A stretch of 64,000 bases of DNA from Alphaproteobacteria bacterium (GTDB lineage: Bacteria > Pseudomonadota > Alphaproteobacteria > JAEUKQ01), in the NCBI GenBank assembly GCA_044227605.1, contig JBGAWJ010000001.1:4404-68403 (forward strand). The letters run 5' to 3'. A model generated the notes under the pieces. It did no database searches and was not told the DNA's origin. It worked only from the letters and a program-made list of their open reading frames with translations. Of this stretch, positions 11,199 through 42,105 are shown in pieces (the first letter of the stretch is position 1; every line of letters begins with the position of its first letter). Position numbers and translations under genes: made by a program.

Positions 11199-11241
11199 AT
11201 GCCTCCCCTTAGTTTTTGATGCAGCGGGAATGATAAATGAT

Positions 11242-11257
11242 CGTTTCACGTGAAACA
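11242..11257. other. parS: parS centromere-like site (CGTTTCACGTGAAACA, 15/16 match to the TGTTTCACGTGAAACA consensus)
   Basis: The palindromic 16-mer lies in the parB-holA spacer, roughly 740 bp downstream of the parB stop codon. It differs from the universal parS consensus only at position 1. Confidence 0.7.
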
Positions 11258-11994
11258 AAGAACGTTATAGAAGAATGAAGCCGCCATTATTTCACCTTCA
11301 CGTTACAAAACAGCGCCCGGATAAATATTGGCACTGATATAAATTAGGAAAGGGGCTGGCGATAGGGGATTAAAGCGTTGTAAATTAAGGGATGGGATCC
11401 AGTTAAAATTGCTGGGCCAGCAATTTTTACAATGTTTGTCGCTCACGTAACAACCAGGACAACTGCCTGCTTGATGGGGGTCAACGATCATACGGCCCCT
11501 ATCTTTTCTATCGTAAATTGTGCCAATTAATTGTTGAAAAAATGATCGGTGCGGAACTATGGGAAAGGGAGGTATGAATAAGCGGTTATTTTGGCGCTGT
11601 ATGTAAGGGAAACTTTGGTTCTGATGGGTTTAAGCGGTCTTAGGCTTGCTCACACGGGACGCAAAGCCGATGATGCCAAAAGCCCCTTATCCCGGTTATC
11701 CGCAGCTAAATAAGGCCTGACCGCATCGTCTATAGGACGGGTATCACTCTTACAACGTTCTGAATATTTCTAACTTCAATTACTTCCTTATCAATCATAG
11801 TGTATAGTTCTTCGCCGACAAATCCCCCAAAAGAGCTTCAACCTCTTTCTTGAGAAAGGCATCTTCCCCTTCAATCACAGCACCGTTGCCAACCCATTGA
11901 GTATTTTATAAACTACCCTCATATCCCCCAATCTGGCCCCTCATTAAAATTTCCCACATGCTATCTTGGTATCCAAATGCCATCGCCGTTCCTT

Positions 11995-12876
11995 TTAGGC
12001 AGGTGGCAGACTGCTTTTTTGTGCCTGCAGGCGATGGAGGATGGCTTCTAATTCCTGCAAGGTTTTATACCGTAAGGTGAGCATGCCGCCATTACCCTGC
12101 AACGTGATGCGGGCTTTTGCACCCAGCAATGTTGACAAATCTTTCTCCAGCGAAATAATTTCTGCTTGACGGTTTTGCCAACGATTAGCCGCAATGTTTT
12201 TTAAAGCTTTATGGTTTTTGCGGCTTAATTCCTCTGTCTCTCGCACGCTTAAATCTTCCGCAATCACCTGTCTTGCTAAACGCACGGGATCTTTGGCATT
12301 AAGTAGCGCGCGGGCGTGCCCCGCGGATAAATCGCCGCGCGTCAGTAATTCTTTAATTTCCGCGGGTAAATCCAGCAATCGCATCAGGTTGGCAATGTGG
12401 CTGCGGCTTTTCCCAACCATTTCCGCAATTTCTTCCTGTTTTTTGCCGAATTCATGGAGCAGCCGGTGATAGGCTTCCGCTTCTTCCAATGGCAGTAAAT
12501 CCTGGCGTTGCAAATTTTCAACCAGGGCAATTTGTAGGACTTCCTGGTCATTCATTTCCTTGATAACAACCGGTACTTCTTTTAAGGCGGCAATTTTTGC
12601 TGCCCGCCACCGGCGCTCACCCGCAATAATTTCATACTGTCCCGCAAGATTGGGATGTTTCCTGACCAATAAAGGTTGCAAAATCCCATCCTGCCGGATG
12701 GATCCAGCCAATTCATTCAATTGTTCCGGCAGGAATGTCCGCCTTGGCTGTAAGGTACTAGGCTGCAGGGCATCATGGGCCAGTAGCAGGAATGAAGGGG
12801 ATGATGTTTCTTCGCCTTCCACCATATTGCCAAATAAAGCCGCTAACCCGCGCCCTAAATTTCGTTTTTCAACCAT
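11995..12876 (-). CDS. parB: Chromosome partitioning protein ParB (Spo0J)
   Basis: The N-terminal GRGLAALFG and ParB-box motifs are present, and it sits directly downstream of parA. Confidence 0.9.
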   Translation of the reverse strand: MVEKRNLGRGLAALFGNMVEGEETSSPSFLLLAHDALQPSTLQPRRTFLPEQLNELAGSIRQDGILQPLLVRKHPNLAGQYEIIAGERRWRAAKIAALKEVPVVIKEMNDQEVLQIALVENLQRQDLLPLEEAEAYHRLLHEFGKKQEEIAEMVGKSRSHIANLMRLLDLPAEIKELLTRGDLSAGHARALLNAKDPVRLARQVIAEDLSVRETEELSRKNHKALKNIAANRWQNRQAEIISLEKDLSTLLGAKARITLQGNGGMLTLRYKTLQELEAILHRLQAQKSSLPPA

Positions 12877-12894
12877 GATTTTATACCCCAGAAA

Positions 12895-13677
12895 TTAAAT
12901 AACAAGTTTTTCACGGCGCACCATTTCCGCCGCTAATTGGATGTAAGATTGGGCCCCAACGCTTTGATGATCATATAATAATACCGGTTTTCCGTGGGAA
13001 GGGGCTTCCGATATTTTCACGTTACGCGGGATAACCGTTTCATATACCTTATCCCCGAAATATTGGCGCGCATCCCCCGCCACTTGATTACATAAATTAT
13101 TGCGCCGATCATACATGGTCAAGACAATGCCTTGGATCTCAAGCCCCGCATTCAATCCCGCCCGCACCCGTTCAATGGTTTTAATCAGCAAGCTAAGACC
13201 CTCCAGGGCATAAAATTCGCATTGTAAAGGCACCAAAACTTGCGCGGCGGCGACAAACGCGTTTAGGGTTAATAAATTTAAAGAAGGCGGGCAATCAATG
13301 AAAATAATATCAAAAAGCTTCTTGTCTATTTTTTCCAAAGCCATTTGTAACTTATGTTCACGTTTTGGCATTTCCACCAATTCAATTTCCGCCCCCGCTA
13401 ATTTGATCGAGGCTGGAATGATAAAAAGGTCAGGAACCTGGGTGGCTTGGATCAGCGGGGTTGGGTCCTTATCCGCAATCAGCATGTCATAAGTGGACAA
13501 TTGGCGTTTAGTTTGATCAATCGCCAAACCGGTGCTGGCATTTCCCTGGGGATCTAAATCAACCACCAAAATCTTTAAGCCATACGCGGCTAAGGCGGTT
13601 GCCAGATTCACAGCAGTAGTGGTTTTACCAACCCCCCCTTTTTGATTAGCAATCGCAATAATTCTTGGTTTATTCAT
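12895..13677 (-). CDS. parA: Chromosome partitioning ATPase ParA (Soj)
   Basis: A deviant Walker A motif KGGVGKTTT is present. The likely start is the ATG at 13677 (MNKPRIIAIANQKGG); the track ORF extends 13 codons further upstream. Confidence 0.9.
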   Translation of the reverse strand: MNKPRIIAIANQKGGVGKTTTAVNLATALAAYGLKILVVDLDPQGNASTGLAIDQTKRQLSTYDMLIADKDPTPLIQATQVPDLFIIPASIKLAGAEIELVEMPKREHKLQMALEKIDKKLFDIIFIDCPPSLNLLTLNAFVAAAQVLVPLQCEFYALEGLSLLIKTIERVRAGLNAGLEIQGIVLTMYDRRNNLCNQVAGDARQYFGDKVYETVIPRNVKISEAPSHGKPVLLYDHQSVGAQSYIQLAAEMVRREKLVI

Positions 13678-13779
13678 CAGACTGCCTTTACATTCTAGGG
13701 ATATTTTGCCAACCATGGCAATGGCTGGCTTACTTTACTTGCTTTGCCTATTTTAGAATTTTTTGCCTCGGTTTTGATG

Positions 13780-14415
13780 TTAGGCGATTCGCGTTATTTT
13801 TTCAATGATTAAAATCTTGGCTTGCAAATCTGTTAAACTAGGATGGGCTTGATACGAAAAATTCCAGTGCTTTTGCGCCTGTTGGATTTCTTCTTTCCAT
13901 AATTTCCCTTTTAAGAAAACAATTTTGACTTGGTCATGCCATTGATAGCGGCCAAGGTTAAATAATTGATCCAATTTTGCCAACGCCCGGGATGTTACTA
14001 TATCAGTTTTCAGGAATTCAACCGTTTCTATCCGTTGATTACGTACAGTTATTTTTTTTGATGCAATAGCTGCGGTTCCAAACAGCTGATAGGCAACTTC
14101 CTCCAAGAATATTGCTTTGCGCTGGTCCGACTCCACTAAAACAACTTCTGGGACACCCATGATGGCTAAAACCATTCCCGGCAACCCAGCCCCCGATCCC
14201 ATATCGATTATCTTTTGGGGAAGCGCAGGTAATAAGGCCAGGATTTGGCCGCTATCTAAAATATGACGCTCCCACATATCCCCAACCGTTTCCTCTGCAA
14301 TTAAATTCAACCTTTTTTGCCATTGGGCCAGGAGGGTTACATATAATTGCAGGCGCTGAAACGTTTCACGTGAAACATGTAAGAGGGCGGCACATTCTTC
14401 TGCGGTTTTTGTCAT
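13780..14415 (-). CDS. rsmG: 16S rRNA (guanine527-N7)-methyltransferase RsmG (GidB)
   Basis: The N-terminus has LHVSRETFQRLQ and the SAM-binding motif DMGSGAGLPG is present. It occupies the conserved position between mnmG and parA. Confidence 0.9.
   Translation of the reverse strand: MTKTAEECAALLHVSRETFQRLQLYVTLLAQWQKRLNLIAEETVGDMWERHILDSGQILALLPALPQKIIDMGSGAGLPGMVLAIMGVPEVVLVESDQRKAIFLEEVAYQLFGTAAIASKKITVRNQRIETVEFLKTDIVTSRALAKLDQLFNLGRYQWHDQVKIVFLKGKLWKEEIQQAQKHWNFSYQAHPSLTDLQAKILIIEKITRIA
14362..14377. other. parS: Second parS site (identical 16-mer CGTTTCACGTGAAACA) embedded in the 5' coding region of rsmG
   Basis: The 16-mer is identical to the site at 11242. It overlaps the codons for the conserved VSRETF motif of RsmG. 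Confidence 0.65.
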
Positions 14416-18349: not shown

Positions 18350-18562
18350 GTGGCTATTTCCCTTACTGCAAAGGTTATTTTAGGGGGCCTCATTGGGATG
18401 GTACAACTTTTTGGCTTGCCGTCAAATCTTTCGATCAAAGTCTGATGATTCTGTGGGTTGAAGCGAAGAATAATGCGTGCCAGAAACATAAGCTTGCAAA
18501 GACAGCACGCTTATATTTTGTACAAAGCCCACAAGGATATAACTGCTAGCGTAACGCTCCCG

Positions 18563-19819: not shown

Positions 19820-20020
19820 GAAATTTTAAACTATAACCATTAAGGTGTGTGAAATGATAGTGTCTTTTTTGCCGTTACCAAACTTAGATTATTGATCGTA
19901 TAAATCAACGTAACCGCAAGACGTTTTTGATGGGGGATAACAGATGATATATATTCTTTCACTGCTAGTAGCTGAAAAATAAGGGGATGTCAAAGGGAAA
20001 ATAAGCCATTGCCTGCAAAA

Positions 20021-20452: not shown

Positions 20453-21519
20453 CACTGGCTCGCTTTCAGCTGGTTGCGTTGGTAGCACCCACTTTTGGAA
20501 GAAGGGCAATGACCTTTCAAAGAACAGTTCGTTATAGATGATTTCGACCGCACGGCCTGTTCCGTTAAATTCGTAAGTCCCTGGATAAATATTTCATCGG
20601 TACCCACGGTCGGTAGCCGTCTGTAAAAAGCGGCACCTGCTTCTAAAGCTAAATCCCGGTACGTGATATCCAGCTCAACCAGCGTTTCTGAATGCTCGGA
20701 TACAAAGGAAATCGGCACAATAACCAACCCTTGATGCTGGTTGCTAAGCTCGCGAATCACATCCTCACTATAAGGCTTGAGCCAAAGGACAGGCCCAACG
20801 CGGCTTTGATAGGTAATTTGCCATTGATCTGGCTGCAACCCTGCTTTTTCCGCTACCGCCGCCGCAGATATGGCAATATGGGTGTCATAGGGGTCACCTT
20901 GCTCCACAATTTTTTGCGGTAAGCCATGGGCAGAAAAAAGGACTCGGTAAGGGATTCCTGGAAAATCCTGCTGCAACTGGACAATTTCTTTTTGTAATGA
21001 TTTGGCCATCACTTCCGTAAAACCAGCCAATTCTGGATAACAACAAATACTGGTTACAGCAGCAGGGTGACCCTGTTTTCTCCACGTTTTTTGCCAATCA
21101 TCTAACGACGACGCGGTGGTGGTGGTCGAAAATTGGGGGTATAGGGGTAGGGCGATGATTTGGTTGGGGTTAAAATTTCTGACTTCTTCCGCCACTTGCT
21201 GGCTAAAGGGGTGCCAGTATCGCATCGAGATAAAAACTTTTACGACATCTTTGGTAAATCTTTGCTGCAGGTGCTTTTCCAGGATTTGTGCTTGTTTTTG
21301 GGTGTTTGCCAAAATCGGGCTGCCTCCGCCCAAATACCTATAGATTTTTTTGGCCTTTTCTTGCCGGCGCCATGTAATAAATTTAGCCAACAAAAACCTA
21401 AGGGGTTGTGGGGCTTTGATAATGGCTTTGTCTGAAAATAAATTATATAAAAAGCCTGTAACCGCTTCTTGGCTATCTGGGCCGCCTAAATTGAATAAAA
21501 TAACCGCTATACGAGCCAT
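20452..21519 (-). CDS. hemH: Ferrochelatase
   Basis: The 355-aa ORF shows ferrochelatase family similarity throughout (for example FSAHGLP, VGPVLWLKPY). Confidence 0.9.
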   Translation of the reverse strand: MARIAVILFNLGGPDSQEAVTGFLYNLFSDKAIIKAPQPLRFLLAKFITWRRQEKAKKIYRYLGGGSPILANTQKQAQILEKHLQQRFTKDVVKVFISMRYWHPFSQQVAEEVRNFNPNQIIALPLYPQFSTTTTASSLDDWQKTWRKQGHPAAVTSICCYPELAGFTEVMAKSLQKEIVQLQQDFPGIPYRVLFSAHGLPQKIVEQGDPYDTHIAISAAAVAEKAGLQPDQWQITYQSRVGPVLWLKPYSEDVIRELSNQHQGLVIVPISFVSEHSETLVELDITYRDLALEAGAAFYRRLPTVGTDEIFIQGLTNLTEQAVRSKSSITNCSLKGHCPSSKSGCYQRNQLKASQ

Positions 21520-22547
21520 TATTTTCCTCTCTTGACCAGTTCAACCAATTGGTAGACATTTTCCAATGGCGTTTGAGGAAGGATGCCGTGGCCTAAATTA
21601 AAGACAAATTTCTCCCTACCCATTGTTTGTATAATATTTTGTACTTCATTTCTTAAATTCTCTGGATCCCCAAGTAAGGTAAACGGATCTAGGTTTCCCT
21701 GGATGACATAAGACCGTTTAGTCGAGGTCTGCAACGATGGTAGGGGAACGGAACTATCTATGCTGATCGCATCTGCTTTTAATTGTTGCATATGGGGTAA
21801 ATAATTCCAATAACCACCTTTTGGAAAAATAATAATGGGTGTTTTAGGAAATTCCTTTTTTATTTCCTGGATAATGTAGGAAGTGGGGTTTATCCCCCAT
21901 TCCTTCATAGCCTCCACTGAGAGCAGTCCTATCCAGCTATCAAAAAGTTGGACTATTTCAACACCTGCCCTAATTTGCTCGGATAAATACCAGATGATTG
22001 CTTCCGACAATGTTTTAATTAATTGTTTAAATATCTGGGGTTTTTGGTAGGCAAGCAACCGCGTGTTAAAAAAATCCTTACTAGAGCCTTGATCAATCAT
22101 ATAGCAAGCCAGTGTCCACGGACAACCTGAAAACCCTATAAGGGTTGTTTCTGCAGGCAATTGGCTTTTGACAAGTTTTACGGTATCAAATATAGGGCTT
22201 AATTTTTCTTTGAACTGCTCCTTTAAAAAGGATAGGGGGTTTTCTATATTTTCAAGGGAGGAAAGCTTAGGGCCCTTGCCTTCCACAAAAGTTACCTCTT
22301 GTCCAAAAGCGTAAGGGATAACCAAAATATCAGAAAATAAGATAGCACCATCAAAACCAAATCTTCTAATGGGTTGTAACGTTGCTTCGGCTGCAAATAC
22401 TGGGTTTAAGCAAAAATCCATGAAATTTTTAGCTTGCCCGCGTAATTTTCTATATTCGGGTAGATATCTGCCAGCTTGCCGCATTAACCATATCGATGGG
22501 CGAGTATTTTCACGGGTAAAAGTTAAAAGTAATTCTTTTTTCATCAT
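21519..22547 (-). CDS. hemE: Uroporphyrinogen decarboxylase
   Basis: The N-terminus PIWLMRQAGRYLPEY is the HemE signature. It is translationally coupled to hemH through a 1-nt overlap. Confidence 0.9.
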   Translation of the reverse strand: MMKKELLLTFTRENTRPSIWLMRQAGRYLPEYRKLRGQAKNFMDFCLNPVFAAEATLQPIRRFGFDGAILFSDILVIPYAFGQEVTFVEGKGPKLSSLENIENPLSFLKEQFKEKLSPIFDTVKLVKSQLPAETTLIGFSGCPWTLACYMIDQGSSKDFFNTRLLAYQKPQIFKQLIKTLSEAIIWYLSEQIRAGVEIVQLFDSWIGLLSVEAMKEWGINPTSYIIQEIKKEFPKTPIIIFPKGGYWNYLPHMQQLKADAISIDSSVPLPSLQTSTKRSYVIQGNLDPFTLLGDPENLRNEVQNIIQTMGREKFVFNLGHGILPQTPLENVYQLVELVKRGK

Positions 22548-22843
22548 TAATATTTATATAAATAATATTAGTATTGGTAGTAGGGGGCTATAAATAGTGG
22601 AAATAAAAATTATTAAAATAGTATCAACAAACTTATCATTAATTTTTTTTATATAATATAGTGGTTAGAATGGATTAGGGAAGGTTTTCCAACTTATCCA
22701 CTAGTTCTATGAAAAAATATCCCCTTGTGAATAGATCAATGAATGAAATGTTAATAAAAGGGAAGAGAAAACAATGCAGGCTATTTATCCACAGTTTGTT
22801 AGAGATGCTAAAAAGGGGTGCTTTAAAGCACCAGGAAAAATAA
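22548..22843. other. oriC: Candidate chromosomal replication origin (oriC): AT-rich unwinding region plus DnaA boxes between hemE and maf
   Basis: The 296-bp intergenic region has a very AT-rich stretch (about 22550..22680). DnaA-box matches sit at 22694..22702 (TTATCCACT, 8/9), 22727..22735 (TGTGAATAG, reverse orientation, 7/9) and 22785..22793 (TTATCCACA, 9/9). Gene strand switches here, and hemE adjacency fits the conserved alphaproteobacterial ori position. Confidence 0.55.
22785..22793 (+). promoter_or_regulatory. Perfect DnaA box TTATCCACA
   Basis: This is an exact 9/9 match to the DnaA-box consensus, inside the hemE-maf intergenic region. Confidence 0.55.
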
Positions 22844-23434
22844 ATGGATAACATCGTTTTGGCATCAAGTAGCAAGATTCGGGCTATTTTACTTAAAAAT
22901 GCCGGGATTAGGTTTAAAGTACAACCGGCGGATATTGATGAAAATAAAGTGCGCCGGGCCATGGCCACCAAGCCAATCCACGCTCAAAAAATCTCTCATA
23001 TACTGGCCTTAGAAAAAGCACGGAACGTCTCCGCGTTGGTAAAAAACAGCTATATTATCGGGGCCGACCAAGTATTGATTGCCCAAGAAAAGATTTTTGA
23101 AAAACCTGGAACTGAGAAAAAGGCCGTGCAACAATTGTTGGAACTTGCGGGTAAAACCCATCAATTGTGGACAAGTTGTGTTGTTGTTAAAGACGGGAAG
23201 GAACGATGGCATTATACCGCCAAAGCCTCGATGAAACTGGCCAGCCTTTCGCCAGCCAGTGTAGAGGGATATATTAAACGTAACCCGCGGGTGGTTGATT
23301 GTGTTGGTTCTTACCAATTGGAGGGGGAGGGGATCCAACTTTTCGAGAAAATTAGAGGTGACTATTTTTCCATTCTTGGATTACCATTGCATCCTTTGAT
23401 CCTTTTCTTAAAAAAAGAACTATTACTAAGATAA
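22844..23434 (+). CDS. maf: Maf-like nucleotide pyrophosphatase (septum formation protein Maf)
   Basis: The N-terminus VLASSSKIRAILLKNAGI and the remaining Maf motifs are present over 196 aa. Confidence 0.85.
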   Translation: MDNIVLASSSKIRAILLKNAGIRFKVQPADIDENKVRRAMATKPIHAQKISHILALEKARNVSALVKNSYIIGADQVLIAQEKIFEKPGTEKKAVQQLLELAGKTHQLWTSCVVVKDGKERWHYTAKASMKLASLSPASVEGYIKRNPRVVDCVGSYQLEGEGIQLFEKIRGDYFSILGLPLHPLILFLKKELLLR

Positions 23435-23455
23435 TAGGGAAAAAATCGGCAAATT

Positions 23456-24073
23456 ATGAAAATATTTGGGTTAACAGGAAATATGGCAACCGGCAAAACC
23501 ACGTTGGCCAAAATTTTACATCAAAAAAAAATTCCTGTTTTTGAAGCAGACAAACAAGTTAAATTTTTACAAAGCCAGTCGCAAGCAATTCGGACGCTTT
23601 TGGCCGAAAAAGGCTTGGTTGCGGATGCAGAAAAGCCAATTCCTTCTAAACAGATGCGGGAATTAATTTTAAAATCCCCCCAACTTTTAAAGGAGTTGGA
23701 AGCCATATATCATCCAGCTGTCCATGTTTTGGAAACAAAATTCATTAGGCAAGCGTATCGGCAACGGCGCAAGGTTATTTTCCTAGATATCCCCTTGTTA
23801 TTTGAGGTTGCAGCGTACCAAGGTCGGTTCGATGCTGTTTTTTTATCCTATGTCCCGCCCTCTATCCAAAAACAACGGGCTTTCAAAAGAAAGAACATGA
23901 CAGTGGAGTGGTTCTCATTCATTACCTCCCGGCAATTACCGTCTAAATGGAAAATGAAATACTCCCAAGCTGTTATCACAACTGGCCTGACTTTAAGGGA
24001 TAGCCGCTGGCAATTCCTTAGTAAATTAAAAGCCTTTTTAAGCCAGAAACCTTCTGATCAAAAACATCCTTAA
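23456..24073 (+). CDS. coaE: Dephospho-CoA kinase
   Basis: The P-loop GLTGNMATGKTT is present, along with CoaE-like FEADK and HPAV motifs. It occupies the conserved maf-coaE-dnaQ position. Confidence 0.8.
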   Translation: MKIFGLTGNMATGKTTLAKILHQKKIPVFEADKQVKFLQSQSQAIRTLLAEKGLVADAEKPIPSKQMRELILKSPQLLKELEAIYHPAVHVLETKFIRQAYRQRRKVIFLDIPLLFEVAAYQGRFDAVFLSYVPPSIQKQRAFKRKNMTVEWFSFITSRQLPSKWKMKYSQAVITTGLTLRDSRWQFLSKLKAFLSQKPSDQKHP

Positions 24074-24083
24074 GGAATGCGAC

Positions 24084-24767
24084 ATGCGTGAAATTATCCT
24101 GGATACCGAAACAACAGGGTTGGATCCGGAAAAAGGGGATCGGGTGATTGAAATTGCTTGCCTGGAGTTGCTTAATCATCTGCCCACGGGACGGTTCCTG
24201 CAATATTACATAAATCCCGAAAGGCTGGTTCCAGCCGATGCAGTGGCTATTCATGGTATTACGAGCGAGTTTCTAGCAGATAAACCGAAATTTCCCGAAA
24301 TAATATCCAGTTTCCTTGATTTTATTGCAGACTCGCCTTTTGTTATCCACAATGCAGACTTTGATATCCGGTTTCTCAATGCAGAATTGACCCGGGTTAA
24401 ACATCCGCCTTTTCCCTTATCCCGCAGCGTGGATACGATCCTATTGGCGCGTCAAAAATTTCCAGGTGCCCCGGCCAGTTTAGATGCCTTATGCCGACGG
24501 TTTAATATTGACACGAGCCACCGGGCAAAACATGGAGCATTGGTGGATTGTCAATTATTGGCCCAAGTTTATTTGGAATTACGGGGGGGAAGACAAAAAG
24601 GTTTTGCCTTGGATTCCCTTGAATCTTCCCATAATTCTTTAACCAAACCACAAGTGCGGAAAAATTTTTCAAGGAAATTAATCATCCCCCCTTCCCCCAA
24701 CGAGGATGCTGATCACCAACATGTCCTGCAAAAATTACGTAAAGCACTATGGTTCCAGCTAAAATAA
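24084..24767 (+). CDS. dnaQ: DNA polymerase III epsilon subunit (3'-5' proofreading exonuclease)
   Basis: Exo I motif LDTETTG is present, followed by the Exo II and III motifs (HNADFD, HGALVDCQLLAQVY). Confidence 0.85.
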   Translation: MREIILDTETTGLDPEKGDRVIEIACLELLNHLPTGRFLQYYINPERLVPADAVAIHGITSEFLADKPKFPEIISSFLDFIADSPFVIHNADFDIRFLNAELTRVKHPPFPLSRSVDTILLARQKFPGAPASLDALCRRFNIDTSHRAKHGALVDCQLLAQVYLELRGGRQKGFALDSLESSHNSLTKPQVRKNFSRKLIIPPSPNEDADHQHVLQKLRKALWFQLK

Positions 24768-25331: not shown

Positions 25332-25599
25332 GTACCATATTCCCTAACAATAATAACTTTACCAAAAGAAGTTTAGCAACCCTTATGCCCGAACCTGTCT
25401 TTTTTAGCAAGTATCTTGAACGATTATTCACCAAACATATTTGGTAAAATACCAAATAAATAAATCCATTGATAGTATTGCTCGGCGGCGGATTTTTGAA
25501 CAATACAATTTGCCTTTTCCACGGTATTTGCTAGAATTATTAAGAGAAGGCGAGTTTTTTTAACCCCTTTATGTTTAATAATTGTGTAGAATAAAATAA

Positions 25600-40123: not shown

Positions 40124-40864
40124 TTATGCTGCCAAAGTTGCTAAAAGTTGTTTTTGCTGTTCCACCAAGGAGCGGGTTGCTTTCTGGGCCAAATCAAGCA
40201 TTTGAATCAGTTGCGGGGGGGTAAATGAATTTTTCTCAGCGGTAGATTGGATTTCAATGATCTCCCCCTTACCATTCAACACAAAATTTGAATCAACTTC
40301 GGCATTGCTGTCTTCTATATATTCTAAATCTAGAATGGGTGTATTCCGGTAAATACCGCAGGAGATGGCTGCAACATAATCTTGCAAAGGGAATTGCTTG
40401 ATCACACCCGTTTTGACCAAACGGGCTAAAGCCTGATGTAAGGCAACATAACCGCCAGTAATGGCTGCCGTGCGGGTTCCACCATCCGCTTGAATAACAT
40501 CACAGTCAATAAAAATTTGCCGCTCGCCTAAGGCAACCAAATTGGTAACGGCCCGCAGAGAACGGCCAATCAGTCGTTGAATTTCCTGTGTGCGCCCGGT
40601 TAATTTCCCACGGCTGGCTTCTCGTTCACTGCGCGTCGCTGTTGCCCGCGGTAACATACCATACTCCCCTGTTACCCAACCCTTGCCGGTATTCCGCAAA
40701 AAACTTGGCAATTGGTTGTCGACAGAAGCGGTACAGAAAACATGCGTATTGCCCAATTGGATAAAACAAGATCCTTCTGCATATTTATTAACGCCAATTT
40801 CCATTTTAACCACACGCATTTGATCGGGCTGGCGGCCAGAAGGACGAAGGGGGATATTAACCAT
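40124..40864 (-). CDS. rph: Ribonuclease PH
   Basis: LRPSGRQPDQMR is the canonical RNase PH N-terminus. I chose the start at ATG 40864 (MVNIPLRPSGR); the track ORF runs 14 codons longer. Confidence 0.9.
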   Translation of the reverse strand: MVNIPLRPSGRQPDQMRVVKMEIGVNKYAEGSCFIQLGNTHVFCTASVDNQLPSFLRNTGKGWVTGEYGMLPRATATRSEREASRGKLTGRTQEIQRLIGRSLRAVTNLVALGERQIFIDCDVIQADGGTRTAAITGGYVALHQALARLVKTGVIKQFPLQDYVAAISCGIYRNTPILDLEYIEDSNAEVDSNFVLNGKGEIIEIQSTAEKNSFTPPQLIQMLDLAQKATRSLVEQQKQLLATLAA

Positions 40865-40947
40865 TATAAATGACTTCCATTGCTTAAAATGCCAAAATAT
40901 TACCACTCTATTTATACATGATATGAAAATAAAATGATAGAGACGTG

Positions 40948-40975
40948 TTGAGAATTTGCAAAATAATCCCTATTT
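40948..40975 (+). promoter_or_regulatory. Possible heat-shock-type promoter upstream of hrcA (TTG-N17-CCCTATTT)
   Basis: The sequence is gTTGagaatttgcaaaataatCCCTATTT, about 70 nt upstream of the hrcA ATG. The -35 element is imperfect (GTTG rather than CTTG). Confidence 0.3.
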
Positions 40976-41043
40976 ACTAAAAACGCATAAACAAATTAAT
41001 TTGAATAAAAATATGCCCAAGAAGGGTTTATACAGTTGAAACG

Positions 41044-42105
41044 ATGGTGATAAAAAACAGAACCAGTATCCACGAGCTTAACCTGAGGTCGCGAGAAATT
41101 TTTCGCCATATTGTGGATACGTATCTTGAAACGGGCGAACCGATAGGTTCAAAGGTTATTTCGAAGCGGGCTAACCTGAATTTGTCGCCAGCTACTATCC
41201 GAAATGTGATGGCAGATTTAGAGGAAGCTGGGTTGCTTTTTGCCCCCCATATTTCTGCTGGCCGAGTGCCCACGGAATTAGGGTTACGATTATTTGTCGA
41301 TGGGCTACTGGAAATTGGCTATTTGGGGGAAGATGAACGCCGCAATATGGAGGAAAAATGTCAAGTGGGGGGGCATAATTTCCCTATTATGCTCGAACAA
41401 GCTATCCAAGCCTTATCAGGGCTTTCCCGTTGCGCCGGATTGGTTGTGGCACCCACCACCGAATATAGGTTGAAGCACATGGAATTCCTAAAGCTTGGGC
41501 CTGATCGTGCCTTGGTGGTCATGGTATCGGAAGACGGGTTAATCGAGAACCGCCTGATTGATTTACCTAAAGGACTGCCGCCAGCTGCACTGGTGGAAGT
41601 AGGAAATTATCTGACTGCGCGTTTGATTAATAAAACGTTGGCGGAAGCAACGGTTGAAATTACCAAAGAATTGGATGATCATCGGACGGAATTGAATTTA
41701 TTGACAGAAAAGGTTATCAAAACGGGGTTGGCTACCTGGGCGGGGACAAAAAATGAGCGTATCCTTATTTTGAGCGGTCAAAGCCATTTACTAGAGGAAG
41801 TAAAAGAATTAGAAGATTTGGAACGGGTTCGCATTTTATTTCAAATGCTTGAGAATAAAGAATCAATGGTTCGCTTGCTCGAAGAATCAAAGAAGGCTAA
41901 ACATGTCCAGATTTTTATAGGTTCTCAAAATGAATTATTTAATTTGGCCGGTTGTTCTTTAATTATCGCCCCTTACCAGAATAACCGGCAACAGGTGATC
42001 GGGGCGGTAGGTGTGATCGGCCCTAGCCGGATAGATTATGCAAGGATTATCCCTATGGTCAATTACACAGCCCAACTGATTGGGCGGTTTTTAACCAAGA
42101 AATAA
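41044..42105 (+). CDS. hrcA: Heat-inducible transcription repressor HrcA
   Basis: An N-terminal winged helix (REIFRHIVDTYLETGEPIGSK) and HrcA C-terminal domain are present over 353 aa. Confidence 0.9.
   Translation: MVIKNRTSIHELNLRSREIFRHIVDTYLETGEPIGSKVISKRANLNLSPATIRNVMADLEEAGLLFAPHISAGRVPTELGLRLFVDGLLEIGYLGEDERRNMEEKCQVGGHNFPIMLEQAIQALSGLSRCAGLVVAPTTEYRLKHMEFLKLGPDRALVVMVSEDGLIENRLIDLPKGLPPAALVEVGNYLTARLINKTLAEATVEITKELDDHRTELNLLTEKVIKTGLATWAGTKNERILILSGQSHLLEEVKELEDLERVRILFQMLENKESMVRLLEESKKAKHVQIFIGSQNELFNLAGCSLIIAPYQNNRQQVIGAVGVIGPSRIDYARIIPMVNYTAQLIGRFLTKK

Follow-up and report, generated by a model that had tools for sequence, protein, structure and literature searches.

An intergenic gap of 296 bp (22548..22843; GC 27%; no strand assigned), here described as a predicted chromosomal replication origin (oriC), separates the hemE and maf genes of an uncultured alphaproteobacterium. 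It lies within a stretch of 64 kb that was analysed as a whole and that we call the window. The left boundary gene is hemE, encoding uroporphyrinogen decarboxylase (21519..22547, minus strand; TIGR01464, 381 bits, E=5e-114), and the right boundary gene is maf (22844..23434, plus strand). The first-pass annotation of this DNA had described a non-coding gap of 296 bp between these two genes, and its coordinates proved to be exact.

To the left of the gap, the minus strand carries a block of 11 supported genes: parB, parA, rsmG (gidB), mnmG (gidA), mnmE, a ferredoxin-like gene, a DUF6489 gene, rho, hemJ, hemH, and hemE. The strand of this block had been read correctly at first pass, whereas the count of 13 genes from hemE to parB was too high. 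The gidA-gidB-parA-parB cluster reported there is indeed present, with mnmG, rsmG, parA, and parB all annotated left of hemE, and the partition genes parB-parA (11995..13716, minus strand) are 9-10.5 kb from the gap. Left of parB, on the plus strand, are holA, a 172-aa ORF without a family match, and leuS. The interval between holA and parB (11199..11994, ~800 bp) has no convincing ORF; within it are a parS site and five matches to the DnaA box at 2 mismatches or fewer, one of which (TTATCCGCA at 11696) has a single mismatch.

To the right of the gap, the maf-coaE-dnaQ cluster (22844..24767) is on the plus strand, as had been noted, and is followed by secB on the minus strand and then by tim44-like, mltA, and smr genes. 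Outside the hemE-parB block and the maf-coaE-dnaQ cluster, gene orientation is mixed on both sides, so that the earlier argument from co-orientation of genes with diverging replication forks holds locally only. Neither dnaA nor dnaN was found among the ~50 annotated ORFs of the 64-kb window, and none of its unannotated ORFs reaches the typical length of DnaA (about 450-520 aa).

The least stable DNA of the window

In a sliding-window scan, the lowest-GC segments of 100, 130, and 296 bp in the 64 kb all fall at the hemE-maf gap, with GC dropping to 16% across the 130 bp of 22530..22659, the lowest in the 64 kb. The two least stable 30-bp duplexes of the 64 kb are also found here, at 22546..22576 and 22630..22660 (-26.3 and -27.7 kcal/mol). 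Set against a window-wide mean for 30-bp duplexes of -41.1 kcal/mol (sd 3.6), both of these minima are lower in stability by more than 3.7 sd. An AT-rich stretch of ~130 bp had been remarked upon before, and the feature is stronger than was claimed, comprising both the lowest GC and the least stable DNA of the 64 kb.

This DNA forms two AT-rich, low-stability segments, each a candidate DNA unwinding element. The first (22530..22583) contains the 30-mer at 22546..22576 and overlaps the hemE start codon, and the second (22590..22662) contains the 30-mer at 22630..22660 together with a conserved TTTTTTATATAATATA. Among five relatives, the columns of 22548..22587 are 80-90% invariant. The gap thus offers what would be expected of an oriC in this respect: an AT-rich candidate unwinding element (22546..22660) beside a set of DnaA boxes.

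A cluster of DnaA boxes

Four DnaA boxes occupy conserved positions in the gap. Boxes were scored against the Escherichia coli consensus, TTATCCACA, which may differ from the specificity of the DnaA of the host lineage itself. Box 1 (TTATCCACT, 22694..22702, plus strand) has 1 mismatch and reads TTATCCAC[T/C] in the relatives L003, L004, L005, and L007. Box 2 (CTATTCACA, 22726..22734) and box 3 (TTATTAACA, 22749..22757) are both on the minus strand with 2 mismatches, and both keep their register in relatives. Box 4 (22785..22793, plus strand) is a perfect TTATCCACA and is invariant, flanks included, in five relatives. The boxes, starting at 22694, 22726, 22749, and 22785, are thus oriented + - - +, with two of the four within one mismatch of the consensus in this genome. 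On the plus strand, box 2 is preceded by an invariant A-tract and TATCCCCT. Three boxes, including the perfect one at 22785, had been listed at first pass; the perfect box stands, and the number of conserved positions rises to four.

Across the whole window, matches with at most 1 mismatch are at chance level (18 observed, 16.9 expected), so that a lone perfect box means little. It is the concentration of boxes that distinguishes the gap, which holds 2 of those 18 matches and, at the looser limit of 2 mismatches, 5 matches. Its weighted DnaA-box score is 8 where 1.5 is expected (p=0.0008, the same value being obtained from a mononucleotide and from a first-order Markov null), and the top-scoring 296-bp sliding window of the 64 kb starts at 22556. 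Ranked first among the 18 intergenic gaps of at least 80 bp, it is the sole one with two matches at 1 mismatch or fewer. The gap therefore carries the four or so boxes in excess of chance that typify an oriC, and the scan for DnaA boxes and an unwinding element, which had been suggested as a check on the first reading, finds it to be the best of the 64 kb for both.

Two other places in the window were considered and set aside. The only other perfect TTATCCACA (24343..24351) is inside dnaQ, in the codons for residues V-I-H-N of a conserved exonuclease motif. Relatives have synonymous codons there, CAT or ATT, which marks this box as a coding coincidence. A cluster of boxes at 40.7-41.0 kb, around the divergent rph|hrcA gap, consists of matches that are mostly in coding DNA, and the gap itself scores 2. 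Around rph|hrcA (40700..41100), weak DnaA-box matches (at most 2 mismatches) occur together with AT-rich DNA, and a search upstream of hrcA that allowed 3 mismatches gave no CIRCE operator.

Selection on the gap in related genomes

Relatives were gathered by HemE searches, at protein identities of 96% (L003), 91% (L004), 89% (L005), 76% (L007), 62% (L008 and L009), and 60% (L001). All are uncultured alphaproteobacteria, one of them labelled Rhodospirillaceae; a scan of species-representative genomes returned a single relative, at 60% identity. The layout hemE|gap|maf-coaE-dnaQ-secB-tim44-mltA is common to all of these relatives, with gaps of 257-302 bp.

Compared with L007, the gap is 72% identical with two small indels totalling 6 gap columns, whereas fourfold-degenerate sites are 34% identical in hemE and 52% identical in maf, which makes the gap about as constrained as coding DNA. 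Judging from these alignments, the gap is under purifying selection and its box positions are more conserved than the remainder, 31 of 36 box columns being invariant versus 168 of 260 in the rest of the gap (Fisher p=0.006).

The four boxes are in register in L003, L004, L005, and L007, that is, down to 76% HemE identity. Across relatives box 2 reads CTAT[T/C]CACA, and in L007, L008, and L001 it is CTATCCACA, with 1 mismatch. Box 3 is TTATCAACA in L004 and L005 and ATATCCACA in L007, substitutions that run toward the consensus. The weak boxes 2 and 3 are hence nearer the consensus in relatives than in this genome. Box 4 aligns with TTATTCACA in L008 and L001. At ~60% HemE identity these two gaps can barely be aligned with that of the window and their boxes are arranged differently, with 4 boxes in L008 and 5 in L001 at 1 mismatch or fewer (p<0.0003). 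Few anchors survive across both clades; among them are GTAGTAG, the A-tract, and box 4.

More distant genomes also have boxes beside hemE. Nisaea (L010) has 5 in its hemE-DUF299 gap (p<0.001). In two very AT-rich lineages, copies of TTATTAACA are found upstream of hemE, six in L012 (3140..3408) and two in L011 (3741..4000); this sequence, the same as that of box 3 in the window, is apparently a lineage-specific DnaA-box variant in those genomes. In both, bolA takes the place of maf beside hemE. A box cluster is thus kept in relatives, in register in L003, L004, L005, and L007 and independently in L008, L001, L010, and L012. Turnover of box sequences with the cluster always retained in the gap is what selection for DnaA binding predicts.

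Could the conservation instead reflect a small protein, or a structured RNA such as a leader or small RNA? High sequence conservation would suit either product, and two elements might be read as such: a 44-aa ORF (22709..22843) that ends exactly at the maf start codon, and a terminator-like hairpin (22817..22832). The ATG of the ORF is missing in L004, L005, and L007, however, so that 22709..22843 is not a gene, and the hairpin falls where the gap is least conserved and is lost in L004 and L005. In addition, an Rfam search of the gap gave no match, whether at the gathering threshold or with the limit relaxed to E<=1, and the covariation term from RNAalifold was unfavourable (+2.08), with almost no compensatory pairs. 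We consider an RNA or a small protein hardly credible as the explanation.

Replication polarity and partition sites

Within the 64-kb window, the cumulative G-C curve has its minimum at 21106, 1.4 kb left of the gap, in a flat valley spanning 18-26 kb. Third-codon-position skew is negative on the left in both plus- and minus-strand genes (-0.036 and -0.057) and positive on the right in both (+0.090 and +0.046). The sign follows the side on both gene strands, so gene orientation does not account for the change. The window thus contains a switch from negative to positive skew, the direction in which skew should turn at an origin and not at a terminus.

The breadth of the valley bears on whether the origin is nearby with its functional core elsewhere, in another intergenic region or in an extension reaching far into the flanking genes. 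Such a displacement would be compatible with the skew minimum at 21106, with the AT-rich tract that enters the first hemE codons, and with the Cori of Caulobacter, which overlaps a neighbouring ORF. Against it, the other gaps between 18 and 26 kb have low box scores (0 for 18350..18562, 1 for 19820..20020, and 3 for 25332..25599, versus 8 for the hemE-maf gap), and the perfect box in dnaQ (24343) is not kept by relatives. A core outside the gap is, in our view, very unlikely.

Two identical parS sites (CGTTTCACGTGAAACA, each a 15/16 match) were found where 0.22 would be expected in the window. One (11242..11257) is in the gap downstream of parB and holA, 11.3 kb from the hemE-maf gap, and the other (14362..14377) is inside the 5' part of rsmG, 8.2 kb away, so that the sites bracket parAB. 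The association of parS and parAB within about 10 kb, as at Caulobacter-type origins, is thereby present here.

Taken on its sequence features, we propose that the hemE-maf gap is very probably the DnaA-dependent chromosomal replication origin (oriC) of this uncultured alphaproteobacterium. The first-pass annotation had called the gap a probable origin, and box enrichment, duplex instability, conservation, the skew switch, parS/parAB, and synteny all speak for that assignment. One alternative deserves consideration. The gap must also hold the promoters of hemE and maf, which could explain part of its conservation, and DnaA boxes are also found in DnaA-regulated promoters. The gap might then be only a divergent hemE/maf promoter region, with DnaA acting as a transcription factor or the boxes being incidental, and with the origin elsewhere, for example beside dnaA. 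Both the need to place two promoters here and the chance-level frequency of boxes across the window agree with this, as do the absence of dnaA from the window and the two matches of a sigma-70 promoter scan of the gap, a number that shuffles also give. A promoter region alone, however, leaves unexplained the strand-independent switch in GC skew, the proximity of parS/parAB, the presence of the least stable DNA in 64 kb, and the retention of 4-6 boxes in this gap by every lineage despite turnover. Moreover, the mapped and predicted origins of alphaproteobacteria adjoin hemE, not dnaA. We therefore regard a promoter without an origin as improbable.

Discussion

In light of the hemE-maf gap being a predicted oriC, how might it work? 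Characterised origins serve as the model from which we infer that DnaA binds here, where the duplex unwinds, and that replication initiates. DnaA would bind the four conserved boxes, which occupy the right two-thirds of the gap (22694..22793), and the resulting DnaA oligomer would open the adjacent unstable AT-rich DNA of the left third (about 22530..22662), with a block of TAG repeats and a GC cluster (22569..22588) possibly supplying single-strand contacts for DnaA. Forks would then depart bidirectionally, and ParAB-parS, 8-11 kb to the left, would segregate the new origin copies.

The best characterised counterpart is the Cori of Caulobacter, which has been mapped experimentally beside hemE and overlaps a DUF299 ORF (PMC6393856). 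The locus described here resembles that of Caulobacter crescentus in being directly upstream of hemE, in having its AT-rich DNA on the hemE side, and in carrying several DnaA boxes. The flanks are also alike, with maf-coaE-dnaQ on one side and, beyond hemE on the other, rho, mnmE, gidA, gidB, and parAB (preceded here by hemH). There are, however, clear differences. The boxes here are near the E. coli consensus, whereas Caulobacter has weak G and W boxes. The 296-bp gap overlaps no ORF, save for the AT-rich tract that enters the first hemE codons. In place of the DUF299/COG1806 gene (CC0001, yqfL), which is missing, maf forms the boundary. The same substitution of maf is seen in L001, L003-L005, and L007-L009; Nisaea (L010) does carry a DUF299 gene (PF03618) at the gap.

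The regulatory sites of Cori were likewise sought and not found. There are 0 CtrA sites (TTAA-N7-TTAA) in the 64-kb window versus 3.5 expected, and the gaps of relatives have none, giving only one-mismatch matches that are not conserved. The canonical IHF site (WATCAANNNNTTR) is absent from all 8 gaps examined. GANTC, the CcrM site, is also absent from all 8, which is weak evidence since only about 0.5 is expected in the gap of the window.

Other hemE-linked origins have been predicted. In Azospirillum, Ori-Finder/DoriC places oriC in the yqfL-hemE gap with six boxes, with parAB ~12 kb away and two 16-bp palindromic parS sites ~10-12 kb away (bioRxiv 10.64898/2026.09.14.751567). Like it, the present locus is linked to hemE, has boxes of mixed orientation, and has parAB and two parS sites at a similar distance (here 8.2 and 11.3 kb); it differs in having maf rather than yqfL (DUF299) as boundary, four conserved boxes rather than six, and a much more AT-rich genome. 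The origins predicted for Rickettsia, Wolbachia, Ehrlichia, and Anaplasma also have hemE as a boundary gene (PMC1914354). These share with our locus the hemE boundary, boxes in AT-rich DNA, scarce or absent CtrA sites, and conservation among close relatives only (PMC1914354). Their partner gene, by contrast, is a COG1806 or CBS-domain gene, and the predictions draw on sites for IHF and CtrA, neither of which occurs here. The earlier statement that the origin is directly upstream of hemE in Caulobacter and in many other alphaproteobacteria accords with the mapped Cori and with the predicted Rickettsiales and Azospirillum origins.

From its sequence and setting, then, we classify the locus as a predicted hemE-linked alphaproteobacterial oriC that is not a Caulobacter-style Cori in its regulatory features. 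Caulobacter, Rickettsia, and Azospirillum already provide examples of this origin type; the position is one where a specialist would look for an origin, and no new question is opened by finding it. Its value is twofold. As a predicted origin, the locus sets the start of replication, and with it coordinate zero, the layout of the replichores, and the interpretation of strand bias, for a poorly sampled lineage of uncultured alphaproteobacteria. It is also a comparative data point: the hemE-linked position is kept where the CtrA, CcrM, and IHF motifs and the DUF299 boundary gene are absent, which supports hemE linkage as ancestral and CtrA control as a lineage-specific addition.

The two AT-rich segments are separated by the block at 22569..22588, which is conserved and reads, on the plus strand, TAG TAT TGG TAG TAG followed by GGGGC. 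Read 3' to 5' it gives GAT GAT GGT TAT GAT, and it is thus a DnaA-trio-like array (3'-GAT-5' repeats) with a GC cluster, in the orientation given by the trio rule of Table S2 of PMC8287927. Its core, GTAGTAG (22577..22583), is about 30 bp from the hemE start and is invariant in both clades; in the 64 kb this heptamer is rare, occurring twice, both times on the plus strand. Its role might be that of a DnaA-trio-like element or of a signal for hemE expression.

Comparison with the basal unwinding system (BUS), a DnaA box with DnaA-trios, of Bacillus subtilis and others (PMC8287927, PMC6669920) shows the same ingredients: AT-rich DNA, trios, and a GC spacer, which occur here in that order at the edge of the least stable DNA. 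The difference is in the box, since the correctly oriented one 12 bp from the trio block (AGTGGAAAT), with its 3-4 mismatches, is not conserved. According to the published rule, the box may have no more than 2 mismatches and must be correctly oriented, with three or more NAN trios 0-16 bp away. As a strict BUS the block fails, the neighbouring AGTGGAAAT having 3 mismatches. Formally the rule is satisfied only at box 2, in every relative, with trios that are A-rich and not GAT-like; since 52% of shuffled gaps also pass, this match was discarded as evidence. More tentatively, and on balance doubtfully, the lineage may use a pared-down, CtrA-independent hemE origin, a 296-bp module with near-consensus boxes in which a TAG-repeat and GC-cluster element, uncoupled from an adjacent strong box, would direct unwinding. 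If true, this arrangement falls outside the current box-proximal model of the BUS.

Two further observations concern the wider sequence and the expression of hemE. GANTC is under-represented throughout the window (115 sites versus 172 +/- 12 expected), a scarcity that may be due to a methyltransferase specific for GANTC, such as CcrM, or to a restriction system. The hemE gene has no recognisable Shine-Dalgarno sequence, and on its coding strand a TATAAA(T) hexamer ends 5 nt before the ATG. Its mRNA might be leaderless and transcribed from inside the predicted origin; in Caulobacter, similarly, a hemE promoter is located within Cori.
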